Shown: in pieces, positions 21,772 to 47,144 of the stretch
Numbering within the stretch: the first letter of the stretch is position 1
How the letters are laid out: each line of letters starts with the position of its first letter
DNA from: Escherichia phage KarlSchell_Bas89
Length of the DNA: 64,000 nucleotides
Direction: 5' to 3' (one strand)
Sequence record: PQ850613.1
Program-made: the position numbers and the translations under genes
Notes under the pieces: model-generated
The model's input: the letters and a program-made list of their open reading frames with translations, nothing else
The model's database searches: none
What the model was told of the DNA's origin: nothing

Positions 21772-22048
21772 TATTGTATAGATGATAATTCTATTGCAGG
21801 CTTGTATATTGGGCAATTCTCAGAATCCCTTGCAAGTACCGAAGGGCAGGAGACACCTGCGAGATAAAAATAGAGAATTAAGGAATCCTTGATTTAGGTT
21901 GTAGGGACTCCTAGGGACTTTGATTCTCTATTTAAAAGAAATATTAATTACTTACTACCTAAATAGTTAACTAACTTACTTAAAACCTTTTCAATAAGAA
22001 TTGCTAAAAGGATAATTCCTAAGAAAGCTAATAAGAGAAAGGCATAAG

Positions 22049-30794: not shown

Positions 30795-31417
30795 GAAATT
30801 GGGTAGAGTTTAGCCATCTCTTCATCTAATGACTGAGCAAACAGTCGAACTTCATACTGAGCATGGGATGATAGTCGTTGACGACACAATTCAAACCAGC
30901 CATACAAGCTACCAGTCCAGACCCACTCAGTAATCATTCCCTGAGGAAGAACAAAGCGAGCTTGCTCTGGTGCAATAAATTCAATTAGCTTATCATACGC
31001 TGCCAGTGAAGCTTCGTATGCATTATTGATCAGCATTAATGCTTCGGCTCGTTCTCCGTTGACAAGCTGTGTCCCTGAACCTGCATGGAGGTCCGAAGGT
31101 CTCGCAAAAATCTCTTTAGGGATGAAGACTTCAACTGCTCCATCTTTATACCGCCGGGACATTTCGTTCCACGAGAACCCAATTTGGTGTTTTCCAAGCT
31201 GTCTCGCAATTGCGATAGGTGCTTTGCATCGGAAACTGACTTGTGGGTGTCGGAATGGCGTAACATGCTTCTCTCTTGCGAGAAAGTTGATGAGACGTTC
31301 ATCGCGATCATTTAAATCACCTTCGCGGGTTACGCCAAAGGAAACTCGAGCTGCGTTTACTACGCTACGATCACTTCCCATAGCTTCGATTAATGTTGCT
31401 TGTAATTGTTCATTCAT
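30761..31417 (-). CDS. thyX: flavin-dependent thymidylate synthase ThyX-like
   Basis: KAPIAIARQ ... SWNEMSRRY and LSSHAQYE match ThyX signature regions as recalled; canonical RHR appears as KHQ. Confidence 0.75.
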   Translation of the reverse strand: MNEQLQATLIEAMGSDRSVVNAARVSFGVTREGDLNDRDERLINFLAREKHVTPFRHPQVSFRCKAPIAIARQLGKHQIGFSWNEMSRRYKDGAVEVFIPKEIFARPSDLHAGSGTQLVNGERAEALMLINNAYEASLAAYDKLIEFIAPEQARFVLPQGMITEWVWTGSLYGWFELCRQRLSSHAQYEVRLFAQSLDEEMAKLYPISWSALRKTLES

Positions 31418-41342: not shown

Positions 41343-41547
41343 CCTTGATACCTTTCAGTTTCACATAGTCAGCCAGCACGTTGTTAATAACTGTTGGGAA
41401 AGGAATCTCAACAGGTGCATTAACTAACCCACCAATACCCTCTTGCATCCACTTCTGGATTGCACGAAGGTTATCACATCCTGTGCTTGTCATTGGAATA
41501 CGGCGAGTGGTTACAACGTTATCCAACATCATCTTACGAATTTCCAA
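41314..41547 (-). CDS. hypothetical small protein
   Basis: ORF only. Confidence 0.3.
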   Translation of the reverse strand: MEIRKMMLDNVVTTRRIPMTSTGCDNLRAIQKWMQEGIGGLVNAPVEIPFPTVINNVLADYVKLKGIKVEPHVKQGN

Positions 41548-42043
41548 GGTACACCTCTACATTTTCATTTAGTTTAGCAAAAGATTTGTGATGAATAGGA
41601 GCTGCTTTATTGTAAGCATTTGCTGCATCTTCCTCGGTAGAAAACCTACCAAGATACAGAAGCTTACCATCAACTCGAATCCTCGCTTCCCATTTACCAG
41701 AATTGAAGTATATTCCTTTATACTTGGTATTTTTACCATTCATAACAGAACAGTTTCTACTATTTCCTGCTGCATCAGCTTCTCTAAGATTTTCGGGATG
41801 CTGATCATCTCGGATACCATTGATATGGTCTACATATTTAGGAAGGTATCCATTATACATAAAGAAAGCTACCCTATGTGCTAGGTATGTCTTTCTTTTG
41901 AATCCGATTTGAATATACCCGCTATCTTTGTTTAGGCTTCCAGCAAAATCTCCAACTTGTTTCATCGGGGTAGGTTGTTTCCAATAGAGACTCCCCTCTT
42001 TATGTTCCAACCTAGATGCAAGCTCTATTAGTGTTTCATCCAC
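41534..42043 (-). CDS. HNH homing endonuclease with AP2-like domain
   Basis: AHRVAFFMYNGYLPKYVDHINGIRDDQHPENLREA plus YLGRFSTEEDAANAYNKA. Confidence 0.75.
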   Translation of the reverse strand: MDETLIELASRLEHKEGSLYWKQPTPMKQVGDFAGSLNKDSGYIQIGFKRKTYLAHRVAFFMYNGYLPKYVDHINGIRDDQHPENLREADAAGNSRNCSVMNGKNTKYKGIYFNSGKWEARIRVDGKLLYLGRFSTEEDAANAYNKAAPIHHKSFAKLNENVEVYLGNS

Positions 42044-42053
42044 TCTACACCTC

Positions 42054-44072
42054 TTAATTATGACCTTTACAGTGCACTGAATCGCACACCACTTGATTGG
42101 TATTGTTTAGTGTGCAGAGTTCTGCATCACGCCACGGAATCTTTTTAAAACAGACTGCACAAAACCCAAGAGTAGACCAGAGGGCTTTTGTGAAGGTTGC
42201 TGATCGGTTTCCATCGAAGGACGCAACTGTTCTGGTAATTGAGACTTTTGACTCACGAAAGGTTTCCGCTGCTGGAGCGGGTTCCTCCTTTGGGGTAGTC
42301 ACTGCAATAGCATAAACACCACCCCAACGCTTCTCAATGTAAGCACCGAACACATCTTCCAGAGTGATTTCACTCTTACGTTTGGTTGAGGATTCCATGA
42401 CAATCATGTTGTCCAGAATCTTTTGATCAACACGAAGAGCTACTTCAGGACGTCGAGCACTTGTTGTATCAACATACTTGGTCCAAACATAACCCTCTTT
42501 CAGAGTGACTTGAGTTGCTTGCTTCTTTGCTTTATTAGCACAGATTTTACAAACATCGTCACTACGAAGTTTACTGAACTCTTCATCAAATTCAAAGTCA
42601 GACTTCACTTCGCCGCACACTGAACAAACGCCGATAGGAATCTCATCCTCTTCAACGTCTTCCACTTGCTTCTGGATAGAGTCAAAACAAGCTTTATGCC
42701 AATATGCTTGGTATGCGAAGATCGCACTTGGTGCTTCTTTCCAGTCGATGTGCTTATCACAGCCACCACAATCACCGTGGGAATGGGCTTCCCAGAACTT
42801 ACGAGTGATAGTCACCCCATTCTTGCTGACAAAACTATCCTCTGCGTCAAAAGGGATATCATCATCGAAATCAGCAGTAGTGCTTTCCGGCTCCTTTTTC
42901 GACAAATCAAAGAAGTGACCAGAGATTAACACCAGACGAATCATGCTATTAACTTCAGAGATACAGCCAACCGTACCACGGTAAACCATATGCTTGTTCT
43001 TAAGAGCAGCTTCATAATCAGTTTGCAGGATGTTATGAACATCACCCTCAATATACTCTTGAGCTTTGTCATCATAAATATAACCAACCATCTTACCGCG
43101 ATCGGTATCTTTATAACAAACAAACTCATGAGGAATAATATCAACCTGCATATCACGACGGATATCAACACCTTTGTCAGAGGCGATCTTGTTTTGTTTC
43201 AAGATTGCTTCACGACGACGTACATCACCTGCGGTTACGCCGGGCTTTCTTTGCTCGTCGCTGTTCCCGTTTAAGTAACTTTTTACTACGCTTGAGTGGT
43301 TGTTGCTGTAGCTGTTCGAGTAATAACTGCCCCAACGCGTTGCTACCGTAAAAACCGGGAGTTCATGTACGACCTCCTCTACCAAAGTCATCTTGTTGTC
43401 AGAAACATCAAAGATGTACTCTGTACCGACCTTACACTCAAAGTGCTCATCAATTCGGTTCTTGTGGCTCTTAGAACGCTGAAGAATCCACATCAACATC
43501 GCTTCTTCTGAAGCACCAAACCATGAAGTTCCCAGACGGGCCAGATGGAATGGACGCTCATCGTTGCGAATGATGTGAAGACGGTTATCACTTGCATCAT
43601 GCCAGATCAGAGTGAATGCACCATCCAACTTCTGAATAGTCTCTGCTGCACCAATCTTGTTAATAGAGTGGCAGATATTCTCACTATCAACTTCAAAAGC
43701 CTTACTGTCAGGCAGGAGGTCTTGATCAACTAGGGTTCCGTTATGAACCAGAGTGATGTTTCCGTGAGAGAATGGGTGAGCGTTACGTGAGTTAATAGCG
43801 CCTTTCGTAGCATGTCGGCTGTGACCAACAATCCATGAAGGAGGCACTGTGTAATTAGTAAGGCCAGTTGTCAGCTCGGTGTACTCTTTCTGTAACATGA
43901 AAGCATAGGAAGGCAGTGCTTCTTTATAAGAGAACACAGATCTTTCGCTTTTACGCTGACCGAAAATACCAGTTGAGTGTTGACCACGAAATACACCAGC
44001 GTAGAGAAGCTGGTTGTAAATATCTAAGTCATAACTTGAGAGGCTTCCACCTGCTAATACGATACCACAAAT
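42054..44072 (-). CDS. class II (Ntn) glutamine amidotransferase fused to a Cys-rich C-terminal domain; probable non-AUG (ATT) start
   Basis: Frame upstream of the track start reads stop-K-I-CGIVLAGGSLSSYDLDIYNQLLYAGVFRGQHSTGIF, the classic MCGIV N-terminus; GAFTLIWHDASDNRLHIIRND downstream. Confidence 0.7.
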   Translation of the reverse strand: MCGIVLAGGSLSSYDLDIYNQLLYAGVFRGQHSTGIFGQRKSERSVFSYKEALPSYAFMLQKEYTELTTGLTNYTVPPSWIVGHSRHATKGAINSRNAHPFSHGNITLVHNGTLVDQDLLPDSKAFEVDSENICHSINKIGAAETIQKLDGAFTLIWHDASDNRLHIIRNDERPFHLARLGTSWFGASEEAMLMWILQRSKSHKNRIDEHFECKVGTEYIFDVSDNKMTLVEEVVHELPVFTVATRWGSYYSNSYSNNHSSVVKSYLNGNSDEQRKPGVTAGDVRRREAILKQNKIASDKGVDIRRDMQVDIIPHEFVCYKDTDRGKMVGYIYDDKAQEYIEGDVHNILQTDYEAALKNKHMVYRGTVGCISEVNSMIRLVLISGHFFDLSKKEPESTTADFDDDIPFDAEDSFVSKNGVTITRKFWEAHSHGDCGGCDKHIDWKEAPSAIFAYQAYWHKACFDSIQKQVEDVEEDEIPIGVCSVCGEVKSDFEFDEEFSKLRSDDVCKICANKAKKQATQVTLKEGYVWTKYVDTTSARRPEVALRVDQKILDNMIVMESSTKRKSEITLEDVFGAYIEKRWGGVYAIAVTTPKEEPAPAAETFRESKVSITRTVASFDGNRSATFTKALWSTLGFCAVCFKKIPWRDAELCTLNNTNQVVCDSVHCKGHN

Positions 44073-44146
44073 TTTCTAATCCACCTGAAGGGTAAACCCT
44101 TTCATCTAATTAACCTTTAGTTGTGCCCCTTTCGAGGCACCCATTG

Positions 44147-45247
44147 TTACAGCAGTCGTTCTAACTGAATTTCCAAGTGATCTGGAATATACTCAGTGAC
44201 GTTGTTATCGGAGACGCCAGATTCACGCATCATGTTGAGCATGTTACGAATCTGCCCTTCTGTTGCTTCACGAGCTTCGCTGATCTCTGATTCATAGAGG
44301 GACATAATCTCGTCATGAACATCTGGAGCGTTACCTCGAACATATCCGAGGAAGCCGTAGAAGTCAGACATATCACGAAGAGATACAACTACGGACCCAC
44401 TATTATCAAGAGTTTGTAAACGAATACGCCCAACCTGACGTACAGAACGGTTACGACAGAACAGGATATCACGAGCCAGACGATAACCACTATCAAGATC
44501 TTCGTGTCTTGGTGAATAATCCAGAGGTAGGTGAGGTAGCATAGGTTCAAAACGAACCCTGTTAAGCATCTCAACAAACTCTTCATTGTCAAGCTCTGCA
44601 TTCTCAACTGCTAATTTCTTGAGAACCAAGAAGCGATTTACCAGATTTAACAGCTGACCTTTCTTCCACTTAGGCTCTGAGATACGGAACTCAACAGAAC
44701 CGAACTGAGCCAGAGGAAGTAGATTAAGTGATGTATACTTATCCCAACGATCAACAATATGTCGGAAGAAGTTCTCACCTTCGTAGTTAAACGCTTCAGA
44801 GGCATTCATTACTTGAGCCTGAACCACTGCAAACGCAGGACAGAAATTACTACGGTAACGGTGATAACCAGAGCACTTAAACATCAATGCTTCATAGAAA
44901 GTCCACCCAAGGATAACTTTCTTAACGATGTTGCTATCAGCATCTCGCATATCCATATGAACGTGAGTGGAACAGCGCCAAGTCCCTTCTGCTTCGGACT
45001 CCATCACTGCCTCACTCAGATTGTTGATAGCGTCAAACAGTTCTACACCATTGTAAGGGCGAGAACAGACCATTTCACATCCGTTGCGAAGCGAGCCGTC
45101 CTCTGTACATTCCCACATATCTGCTTCGATATGATCGTCACCTTCAAGCTCCAGCTCAATACCAATACCACATTGGAATGCGATACTCGGATGTTCTTCA
45201 CTCAGACGATTACTACGGTATCCAAAAGCTTGCGCTACAGTTGTCAT
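44147..45247 (-). CDS. amidoligase (glutamine-synthetase-like carboxylate-amine ligase)
   Basis: GIGIELELEG and CSTHVHMDM resemble amidoligase/GS-like metal-binding motifs. Confidence 0.55.
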   Translation of the reverse strand: MTTVAQAFGYRSNRLSEEHPSIAFQCGIGIELELEGDDHIEADMWECTEDGSLRNGCEMVCSRPYNGVELFDAINNLSEAVMESEAEGTWRCSTHVHMDMRDADSNIVKKVILGWTFYEALMFKCSGYHRYRSNFCPAFAVVQAQVMNASEAFNYEGENFFRHIVDRWDKYTSLNLLPLAQFGSVEFRISEPKWKKGQLLNLVNRFLVLKKLAVENAELDNEEFVEMLNRVRFEPMLPHLPLDYSPRHEDLDSGYRLARDILFCRNRSVRQVGRIRLQTLDNSGSVVVSLRDMSDFYGFLGYVRGNAPDVHDEIMSLYESEISEAREATEGQIRNMLNMMRESGVSDNNVTEYIPDHLEIQLERLL

Positions 45248-45867: not shown

Positions 45868-46677
45868 TTACGCTACCTGTAAACGTTTCAAGAACACACC
45901 TGCTTCACGAACATCATTGGTGTTGATGATCTGGTGCAGCTTTTCAATCGGAAGGCGAGAGTGGAGGCTCATCAAGAACTCCATGTCGCTGTTTTGTACA
46001 ACCTTGTCAACTTGATCATACACAAATTGACGATCTTCTTTCTTGCCAATCCAGAAGTTCGACAGAGATCGATACTCAATACCGTAAGGTTTGTAACGGA
46101 TTGCGGATGCTTTACCGTACAGCTCTTTACGACGAGTATCACCGTCCATCAGAACAGCAGGCAATGACAGGAAGTAATCACACAGAACGCCCAGCATCAT
46201 CTGAACCTTCTTATTCACATCCAGAGAGCCAGTGACACCAATGTGCACATGACCACCTGCTGTACGCAAGCCCTTGTTCTCTGAAGTTGGAGAAGCATTC
46301 TTTTGACCGGTGAATGCGTTGAAGTCTGGAGTACAACCAAACACGAAAGCGGACGGATGGAATGATTCCAATTCTTCTTTAGAGAAGATATGAGAGCTTA
46401 CACCCAGAGCCGCTTCCATGTCCTGTTTCTTCAGCACTTCATTGGTAAGATCAATACCGCGCTGAACGTTGTCATTAAACGCTTCAAAACCTTGTTGTGG
46501 GTTGATATCAAACTCAGCCAGCACGTTGTCTTCTTGGAGACGTACATCCTTAGCCAGATCGATTTTATTTTCTTTAGAACAACCCAGCTTGCCAGCAACA
46601 GAGGTGATGATGCCAGAAGAAGTACGAACAAACATCTCTGGGTCCGTCCCAATTAAAAATACACGTTTAGTAGTCAT
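45868..46677 (-). CDS. second glutamine-synthetase-like ligase (putative)
   Basis: LIGTDPEMF and GGHVHIGV resemble GS/GCS2-type motifs. Confidence 0.45.
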   Translation of the reverse strand: MTTKRVFLIGTDPEMFVRTSSGIITSVAGKLGCSKENKIDLAKDVRLQEDNVLAEFDINPQQGFEAFNDNVQRGIDLTNEVLKKQDMEAALGVSSHIFSKEELESFHPSAFVFGCTPDFNAFTGQKNASPTSENKGLRTAGGHVHIGVTGSLDVNKKVQMMLGVLCDYFLSLPAVLMDGDTRRKELYGKASAIRYKPYGIEYRSLSNFWIGKKEDRQFVYDQVDKVVQNSDMEFLMSLHSRLPIEKLHQIINTNDVREAGVFLKRLQVA

Positions 46678-47144
46678 GCTTTAGTCCAACCTTTATGAGA
46701 TAGATAGTTTTTAAACCTGCCACTGTGAACAGCTCCCATGTGGCCGGGATGTAAGTTGTTATTTCTACAGAAGTCTTTGAGGTTATATATTTTAACAACC
46801 CTTCCTTCTGGAGATTTAAACTTCCAAAATCTAGCATTCCCTTTCACAGCATTATCTTTGCTGGATAGAAGTTGGAAATTGGTGAGACGGTTATTAGTTT
46901 TATCACCATCTATGTGGTCAACTGTCATGCCCTCAGGTATCGGGCCTATAAACAACTCCCACAAGAGCCTGTGTACCAGAAAATTTCTTGTAATCTTTTC
47001 CGGAGCTTGAATGGCAACAAACCTTAAATAGCCATCTTTATCAGGGAATGTTTTCCTACATTTCCCTGTTTTTGCATTAATGATTCTACCGTTTTCAAAT
47101 ACCCGAAAAGTAGAAACACCAACTACTAACTCTCTGTAGTCCAT
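46674..47144 (-). CDS. HNH homing endonuclease
   Basis: VHRLLWELFIGPIPEGMTVDHIDGDKTNNRLTNFQLL. Confidence 0.8.
   Translation of the reverse strand: MDYRELVVGVSTFRVFENGRIINAKTGKCRKTFPDKDGYLRFVAIQAPEKITRNFLVHRLLWELFIGPIPEGMTVDHIDGDKTNNRLTNFQLLSSKDNAVKGNARFWKFKSPEGRVVKIYNLKDFCRNNNLHPGHMGAVHSGRFKNYLSHKGWTKA

Follow-up and report, generated by a model that had tools for sequence, protein, structure and literature searches.

Translation in bacteria starts at a small set of codons, and ATG, GTG and TTG together account for 99.95% of the annotated starts in well-curated bacterial genomes (bioRxiv 10.1101/063800). In the E. coli reporters of Hecht, initiation at AUU or AUC reached about 1-2% of that at AUG, and the only genes of E. 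coli confirmed to start at AUU are infC and pcnB (bioRxiv 10.1101/063800). At the junction of thrS and infC, which reads UAA-GGU-AUU, reporters assign about half of the initiation to reinitiation and about half to de novo initiation (PMC3592434). For the GTC start of the Streptomyces gene sigR, an extended ribosome-binding site has been proposed as compensation (PMC5472188). Here, the start of a gene for a class II glutamine amidotransferase (GATase) is described in 64,000 nucleotides of Escherichia phage KarlSchell_Bas89 (sequence record PQ850613.1). This whole stretch is referred to as the window, and positions are counted from its first letter. The gene lies on the minus strand, and its translation most probably starts at the AUU codon at 44072-44070, a reading to which the sequence comparisons below lend a probability of about 0.88.

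Class II amidotransferases need Cys1 as their N-terminal nucleophile. In Bacillus subtilis PurF, Cys1 is exposed by the autoprocessing of an 11-residue propeptide, and Ntn (N-terminal nucleophile) hydrolases in general can self-process. The codon in front of the Cys1 codon is the subject of the following sections.

The start site of the amidotransferase gene

The minus strand reads ...CTTCAGGTGGATTAGAAAATTTGTGGTATCGTA... (also ...GATGAAAGGGTTTACCCTTCAGGTGGATTAGAAAATTTGTGGTATCGTATTAGCA...) across the junction between leader and gene. The frame of this junction belongs to the open reading frame (ORF) that ends at 42054 and consists of TAG (44078-44076), AAA (44075-44073), ATT (44072-44070), TGT (44069-44067), GGT, ATC and GTA. 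Only AAA and ATT stand between the in-frame TAG and the Cys1 codon; ATG, GTG and TTG are absent there. A sequence-only reading of the window had given the same frame (stop-K-I-C-G-I-V), with AGGTGG 8 nt before ATT and no canonical start before the Cys, and its codons proved exact. The coding sequence (CDS) and the features of its start site are as follows.

42054 to 44072, minus strand: full CDS of the class II (Ntn) GATase-domain protein, orthologue of phiEco32 phi32_83; stop codon at 42056-42054
44070 to 44072, minus strand: putative ATT (AUU) initiation codon, assigned from homology to ATG, invariance, and annotation in EU330206, SU10 RefSeq, Bas86 and Bas94
44073 to 44080, minus strand: A/U-rich spacer ATTAGAAA, with the in-frame stop TAG at 44078-44076
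44081 to 44086, minus strand: Shine-Dalgarno sequence (SD) AGGTGG, 8 nt 5' of ATT; predicted anti-SD duplex of -5.9 kcal/mol
43935 to 43937, minus strand: in-frame GTG, codon 46; the start in the KBNP1711 annotation, a mis-call that removes Cys1

Distant homologues point to ATT as the initiator. The homologous position reads ATG-TGY-GGN-ATY-GT (M-C-G-I-V) in eight of eight, from 7-11-like Grimontviridae, Lahexavirus, Bjornvirus and PJNS034, whose annotated start lies one codon before the aligned Cys. The sequence-only reading had set its AUU against a possible ATG in homologous phages: such an ATG exists, but in other genera, where it marks the codon as the initiator and does not refute ATT. 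Closer to the window, ATT was kept in all 20 sequences inspected, namely nine GenBank phages (three genera), three IMG/VR genomes, seven independent metagenome contigs and Aeromonas phage BUCT695. In GenBank EU330206 (2008), phi32_83 is annotated from ATT, which makes it the only ATT among 128 CDSs (ATG 112, GTG 13, TTG 2). Among the records inspected, the ATT start is otherwise used only in SU10 RefSeq and the BASEL phages Bas86 and Bas94.

The rarity of ATT starts, and nothing else, speaks for a sequencing error or a recently inactivated start in a pseudogene. The probability of either is negligible: about 20 phiEco32-like genomes and contigs, which were sequenced independently and come from several continents and three genera, have the identical ATT, and the ORF of 672 codons is intact (mature protein of 671 aa after Met removal). 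In phage SU10, the orthologue was detected in bulk by mass spectrometry with nine peptides (PMC4281155), so the protein is made. The worry about a sequencing error that the sequence-only reading had raised is set aside by the identical ATT in independent phiEco32-like sequences and in BUCT695.

A start at a downstream canonical codon (GTG at 43937, or the equivalent ATG in SU7) would give a product without Cys1, not an active amidotransferase. Such starts stand in most GenBank records; gene callers have chosen them in Escherichia phage EP335, KBNP1711, SU7, EK010, O18-011, BUCT695 and Pseudomonas phage Ty. The GATase CDS is truncated in each of these records and begins at a downstream ATG or GTG; the position differs from record to record, and the catalytic Cys1 is lost every time. 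The GTG at 43937 is the first canonical in-frame start downstream of ATT and has no SD in front of it. Starting there would lose Cys1 and 44 more residues, including R28-G29, H31 and T33-G34, which like C1-G2-I3-V4 are invariant down to 37% protein identity. The deletion of the catalytic N-terminus from this nearest conventional start, as foreseen in the sequence-only reading, is therefore confirmed. Moreover, codons 1-45 diverge mostly at third positions and synonymously: of the 39 nucleotide differences from phiEco32, 27 are at third positions, and the changed codons divide into 20 synonymous and 9 non-synonymous ones (in this comparison BUCT695 was aligned without gaps and is usable for the first codons only). 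Codons 1-45 evolve as coding sequence, and therefore the stretch upstream of the GTG is translated. A downstream start is accordingly very improbable.

Start codons across the phage family

The GATase family was surveyed at 75 loci, retrieved by protein similarity irrespective of start codon. The Cys is preceded by ATG in 53 of them, ATT in 12, TTG in 6, ATC in 3 and GTG in 1, and no other codon was found there. This restriction to start-capable codons argues for a start codon and not a propeptide residue. ATT and ATC make up 17-19% of the clusters, whether formed at 50, 70 or 90% identity. These clusters stand at no fewer than six places in a neighbour-joining tree, in one clade of which close relatives differ in having ATT, ATC, TTG or ATG. 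With few exceptions, an in-frame stop lies 1-6 codons before the ATT or ATC, and no canonical start separates the two. Among cultured phages outside the phiEco32 group, Pseudomonas phage Ty, whose annotation is truncated, has ATC; TTG is used by its relative PA11 and by Citrobacter phage CVT22, and LUZ24 has ATG. Two further phage-like contigs in the genome collection, L120 and L123, use ATT (loci are cited by number where needed), and the cellular homologues in that collection have ATG or GTG only. The initiation of a Cys1 GATase at AUU, as the sequence-only reading had it, is thus supported by Pfam matches and the alignment at Cys1 (both given below), by homology to ATG, and by the presence of start-capable codons only at the 75 loci.

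The pairing of the SD differs with the start codon. Its mean is -9.0 kcal/mol in ATT/ATC genes vs -6.7 kcal/mol in ATG genes (Mann-Whitney p=0.0007, kinship ignored), which looks like compensation for the weak start. AUU reportedly performed six- to eightfold below AUG/GUG in Osterman's reporters. The motif GGATTAGAAA-ATT-TGY is also found in two unrelated metagenomic phage GATase genes, L025 (Ga0102925_1009287) and L026 (RCUJ01000352.1). Their proteins share only 38-41% identity with that of the window and with each other, and the DNA in front of the genes is not related. Both read GGAGG-ATTAGAAA-ATT-TGY, including the in-frame TAG, and both have ATT, not ATG; the search pattern behind them required GGATTAGAAA, so their shared initiation region is partly a product of selection.

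Several loci have unusual start regions. Two AUH codons precede the Cys in L081/L112 (Pseudomonas phage Ty), L101 and L123 (ATT-ATC-TGT, ATC-ATC-TGT, ATT-ATT-TGT); a start at the first of the pair would yield Met-Ile-Cys, which is not an expected substrate of methionine aminopeptidase. The IMG/VR locus L058 reads ATG-TGC-TGT-GGA (M-C-C-G), with an extra Cys before the canonical Cys-Gly. In L077, also from IMG/VR, an in-frame ATG without an SD of its own lies 7 codons before ATT (MSLEDSQI-C), and this is the only ATT lineage that may have a short N-terminal extension. Among the hits of loose IMG/VR patterns, L034-L041 and L151 were rejected as chance matches with dead-end ORFs, and L021 as an ordinary bacterial glmS with ATG.

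An out-of-frame UUG (44070-44068, minus strand) overlaps the AUU in the +2 frame (A-UU-UG-U) and opens a 13-codon ORF (MWYRISRWKPLKL*). It was rejected as the true start: the ORF encodes only 13 aa, and its length is not kept in SU7. An overlapping NUG is unavoidable at an AUN-UGY start because TGY is the second codon. ATA does not occur before Cys1 at any of the family loci, probably because ATA-TGY would create a strong out-of-frame ATG.

Four points weigh against initiation at AUU and the pattern drawn from it. The SD of the phiEco32-like lineage is only moderate at -5.9 kcal/mol. The overlapping UUG is a better start codon than AUU and may draw off many initiations. The census and the SD comparison are without phylogenetic correction. 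Finally, the background rate of ATT starts is underestimated since gene callers ignore ATT.

The use of AUU/AUC, typically with a stronger SD, in about one sixth of the lineages suggests selection for a scarce or IF3-sensitive enzyme. With ATG, TTG, ATT and ATC all found in close relatives, the family is a natural series for comparing how the choice of start codon tunes expression within long phage operons.

Identity of the enzyme

The catalytic domain lies at the N-terminus of the protein.

43395 to 44069, minus strand: N-terminal class II GATase domain, about residues 1-225, from Pfam, an alignment of 12 domains and a profile compared with the PDB

Pfam matches were obtained with GATase_6 (53.2 bits, cut-off 27) and GATase_7 (28.6 bits, cut-off 25). 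PHROG 4736 matched at 7e-185 over residues 1-512, and a Cys stands at profile position 2 in three PHROG profiles. The domain has Cys1 and the motifs GHSR85xAT, NAHPF, VH-N110-G111 and D128-S129. In the alignment of 12 N-terminal domains, which extends down to 37% identity with the protein of the window, the invariant residues are C1, G2, I3, V4, R28-G29, H31, T33-G34, G82-H83, R85, A87-T88 and N96, and further H98-P99-F100, V108-H109-N110-G111 and D128-S129.

A single-sequence phmmer search of the protein against the PDB gave no match, and a profile derived from the 12-domain alignment was used instead. It aligned E. coli PurF (1ecb; query 1-126 to chain 1-111) with profile position 1 at the mature Cys1, and human GFAT1 from its Cys (residue 1). 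In the HMMER alignment to 1xff, GHNRxAT, VHNG and vDSE pair with HTR73WAT, HN98G99 and ETD123 of GlmS. The corresponding residues of the window for the Arg, the Asn-Gly oxyanion hole and the Asp of glutamine binding are GHSR85HAT, VH-N110-G111 and VD128SE. By these defining sequence features, the protein classes as a predicted class II (Ntn, PurF-type) GATase.

GlmS itself was rejected as its identity: the NCBIfam glmS models reach 34-40 bits, with cut-offs of 381-418, and cover residues 27-200 only. The protein has no Pfam match to an SIS domain. The name 'glutamine-fructose-6-phosphate aminotransferase' in many records is wrong since the SIS domains are absent. Residues from about 226 to 671 (42054-43394, minus strand; about 445 aa) match no Pfam model and are related to phage proteins only, and this C-terminal part contains several CxxC pairs (zinc-ribbon-like).

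The leader and its upstream mini-ORF

The leader in front of ATT has its own conserved arrangement, with a short ORF and two hairpins.

44065 to 44119, minus strand: 55-nt block identical in Nieuwekanaalvirus (the window), Suseptimavirus (SU7) and Kuravirus (phiEco32)
44114 to 44118, minus strand: AAAGG, a weak SD-like sequence (-3.4 kcal/mol) 8 nt 5' of the mini-ORF ATG; start of the invariant block
44076 to 44105, minus strand: mini-ORF ATG AAA GGG TTT ACC CTT CAG GTG GAT TAG (MKGFTLQVD*), ATG at 44105-44103, in frame with the GATase
44086 to 44104, minus strand: hairpin 2, UGAA(A)GGG-UUUA-CCCUUCA, -6.1 kcal/mol, core AAGGG/CCCUU
44123 to 44140, minus strand: hairpin 1, GUGCCUC-GAAA-GGGGCAC, -12.7 kcal/mol, GNRA-type, just after the amidoligase stop

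The 55-nt block takes in the mini-ORF SD, the mini-ORF, hairpin 2, the GATase SD, the spacer, ATT and the first 5 coding bases. The invariant runs that follow it in length within the 4.7 kb around it measure only 21 and 20 nt. Among the 292 exact matches to phiEco32 genome-wide, the block takes only 20th place; its flanking identity of 0.70 is the lowest of the top 16, and longer matches sit in 78-93% identical regions. The block is exceptional for its 70%-identical surroundings only, not genome-wide. Longer exact matches to phiEco32 include 49967-50086, 31072-31177, 21854-21940 and 54291-54455 (120, 106, 87 and 86+78 nt), in regions of 85-93% identity.

The last two bases of the mini-ORF AUG are part of hairpin 2, which borders directly on the GATase SD. 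Comparative support for this hairpin comes from BUCT695, where a change falls in the loop. In L120, sequence inspection finds an extra A-U pair (AGGGA-UUUA-UCCCU), although the minimum free energy (MFE) structure that ViennaRNA gives for a longer L120 segment folds differently. The hairpin of the MFE fold that would sequester the SD (GGUUUACC/GGUGGAUU) was rejected: both BUCT695 substitutions break it uncompensated, whereas the AAGGG/CCCUU hairpin tolerates them. The z-score of the whole-leader fold is only -1.3, and an Rfam search of the leader returned nothing at E<=1. The stem of hairpin 1 shows compensatory changes between genera (GCGCUCU...AGGGCGC in SU7 and Bas86). It has no U-tract and is therefore not a typical intrinsic terminator; it may be an element for RNA stability or processing inside the early operon.

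An imperfect direct repeat runs through the leader on the minus strand, with AGGT-TA-ATTAGA (44106-44115) before the mini-ORF ATG and AGGT-GG-ATTAGA (44075-44086) before ATT. This repeat suggests that a duplicated ribosome-binding region gave rise to the leader. Only one copy, tagATGAAAGGAtttttgtATG, is present in ECO319P1, and there ATGAAAGGA is the SD of a normal ATG start.

The mini-ORF of nine codons, a feature overlooked in the sequence-only reading, stands in frame directly upstream of ATT and ends 3 nt before it (junction UAG-AAA-AUU). Could ribosomes that finish the mini-ORF supply the start at AUU? In such a variant of AUU initiation, ribosomes would start at the mini-ORF AUG (44105-44103), pass hairpin 2 and the SD while translating the nine codons, and stay on the mRNA after the UAG to start again at AUU 3 nt further; this would be the main route, and de novo binding of the 30S subunit a minor one. 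The geometry is that of thrS-infC (PMC3592434), and the 55-nt block starts exactly at the mini-ORF SD. The leader with hairpin and mini-ORF was found only in phiEco32-like phages and BUCT695, and these same lineages are the exception to the strong-SD rule, with -5.9 kcal/mol vs about -9 to -10 kcal/mol in the other ATT lineages. In L120, whose protein is 61% identical to that of the window, a real helix-turn-helix (HTH) gene of at least 73 codons lies upstream, and its 3' end is the counterpart by homology of the mini-ORF. The frame of this gene runs across the homologous hairpin and SD and closes with TAG-TAA immediately in front of ATT. The leader of BUCT695, too, is preceded by a homologous HTH ORF. 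An ORF thus terminates 0-3 nt before AUU in both relatives, as a full gene in L120 and as an SD-less mini-ORF in BUCT695, which makes termination-reinitiation a reasonable contributor.

Other observations count against a role of the mini-ORF. Its SD is weak (-3.4 kcal/mol) and absent in BUCT695 (+0.9 kcal/mol), and its AUG is predicted to lie partly within hairpin 2. L025, L026, L071 and others use ATT without such a mini-ORF or any nearby terminating ORF. Both substitutions seen in the mini-ORF are non-synonymous, and nucleotide invariance does not demonstrate that it is translated. By analogy with infC, a functional contribution of the mini-ORF and reinitiation is conceivable at not quite even odds; as the main route, reinitiation is possible but falls clearly short of an even chance.

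The in-frame position of the mini-ORF also raises the possibility that the UAG is read through from the mini-ORF AUG, with autocatalytic removal of a 12-residue propeptide (MKGFTLQVDxKI) afterwards, for which B. subtilis PurF provides the precedent. This is highly unlikely. The in-frame TAG two codons before Cys1 leaves no continuous ORF from the mini-ORF into Cys1, and the window has no suppressor tRNA, only a tRNA-Arg(UCU). Tandem stops, TAG-TAA, precede ATT in L120, and L025, L026, L059, L071, L075 and L087 have ATT with no in-frame AUG upstream. Homologues with ATG have no propeptide, and the codon before Cys1 is start-capable throughout the family. The other way of making the domain that the sequence-only reading had left room for gained no support from the computational tests.

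Proposed mechanism of initiation at AUU

Initiation at AUU would thus proceed as follows. Translation would start with initiator fMet-tRNA at AUU 44072-44070, with the SD AGGUGG 8 nt upstream. Deformylase and methionine aminopeptidase would then remove fMet and expose Cys1. The weak AUU, discriminated against by IF3, would hold back this gene specifically within the long early host-takeover transcript, of which it is an internal cistron, and the output of GATase would be low and IF3-sensitive. Ribosomes translating the nine-codon mini-ORF might in addition open hairpin 2 and reinitiate at AUU 3 nt past the UAG.

A wider proposal is that the 55-nt leader is a dedicated translational control module, one that ties GATase synthesis to ribosome traffic and to the start fidelity of host IF3, and that the family is under recurrent selection for AUU/AUC in at least six lineages, with strong SDs compensating. 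This proposal is tentative and rather unlikely. If true, the phage would meter a potentially harmful glutaminase by the translational state of the infected cell, and this would be the first known gene family in which non-canonical initiation has evolved repeatedly, not a single-gene curiosity.

Genome context

The window belongs to a phiEco32-like E. coli podophage (Gordonclarkvirinae, Nieuwekanaalvirus). The region is 97.5% identical to EP335, 96.7% to KBNP1711 and about 74% to other phiEco32-like podophages. The gene upstream of the leader belongs to an amidoligase family.

44147 to 45247, minus strand: upstream gene of the Amidoligase_2 family; stop TAA at 44149-44147, 74 nt before ATT

Further neighbours are a phiEco32-type COOH-NH2 ligase and an ATP-grasp enzyme. 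In phiEco32, this cluster falls into the early host-takeover class; the sigma-70 promoters that serve it lie at the genome's far end, and a gene-specific promoter was not reported (PMC8948821). A promoter scan found no minus-strand promoter at the leader of the window. The consensus of the phiEco32 sigma factor, TAATGTATA (PMC4331800), was not found in the leader either.

An ORF for a homing endonuclease (HNH_3 + AP2) lies directly after the GATase stop at 41534-42043 (minus strand). EP335 and KBNP1711 lack this 487-nt segment (41559-42045), and their flanks rejoin with an overlap of 9 nt, which marks the segment as a recent mobile insertion. Another HNH-like ORF is located at 46674-47144. The single phage tRNA-Arg (anticodon UCU, which reads AGA) is located at 53287-53363 (minus strand) and is annotated likewise in phiEco32.

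Annotation history

The ATT assignment for phi32_83 is not new and has been in GenBank since 2008. Literature searches on ATT starts in phages and in the GATase family, outside which the 2008 phiEco32 genome paper fell, yielded nothing relevant and no paper discussing the ATT start of the phage GATase. What appears to be undescribed is the family-wide recurrence of ATT/ATC, the compensation by the SD, the invariant leader with its infC-like geometry, and the extent of mis-annotation. The truncated annotations delete the catalytic cysteine and so place wrong protein sequences in databases; the correct start in the window would be 44072. As a well-supported third case beside infC and pcnB, and one in a tractable E. 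coli phage, the gene is a useful example of an AUU start.

Comparison with known systems

The closest described gene is phi32_83 of phiEco32, an orthologue with the identical 55-nt leader and a CDS annotated at the same ATT. There, the ATT is an annotation only, and the nearest relatives of the window, EP335 and KBNP1711, carry truncated starts. Class II GATases of the PurF, GlmS and AsnB type have the same Cys1 after the initiator and the same Arg, Asn-Gly and Asp motifs; the phage protein differs from them in that it has no SIS, PRTase (phosphoribosyltransferase) or synthetase acceptor domain. With its propeptide, B. subtilis PurF exposes Cys1 by another route, and the mini-ORF of the window is likewise in frame with the enzyme. 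Unlike in PurF, a stop stands between the mini-ORF and Cys1, and an upstream AUG is lacking in other ATT lineages.

The mechanism is AUU initiation of the kind known from infC and pcnB, not a new one. As in these genes, AUU stands at the only possible initiation position, and the SD AGGUGG lies at a functional spacing of 8 nt. E. coli infC, which encodes IF3, combines AUU, an SD-dependent start and an upstream stop 3 nt before AUU, which matches UAG-AAA-AUU in the window (PMC3592434). The output of infC is limited by IF3 discrimination, and the same would be expected for the phage GATase (PMC3592434; PMC5472188). However, infC autoregulates since its product is IF3, and such feedback is not evident for the phage gene; the ORF upstream of infC is the full gene thrS, whereas that in the window is a mini-ORF of nine codons. 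In E. coli pcnB (AUU) and Streptomyces sigR (GTC), the weak start holds down a protein that is harmful or unbalanced in excess. The start of sigR is compensated by a strong extended SD, as are the starts of most ATT/ATC members of the phage family. Yet pcnB and sigR are single cellular genes, whereas in the phage family the trait has a recurrent distribution, with about 17-19% of lineages showing it and close relatives switching between it and ATG or TTG.

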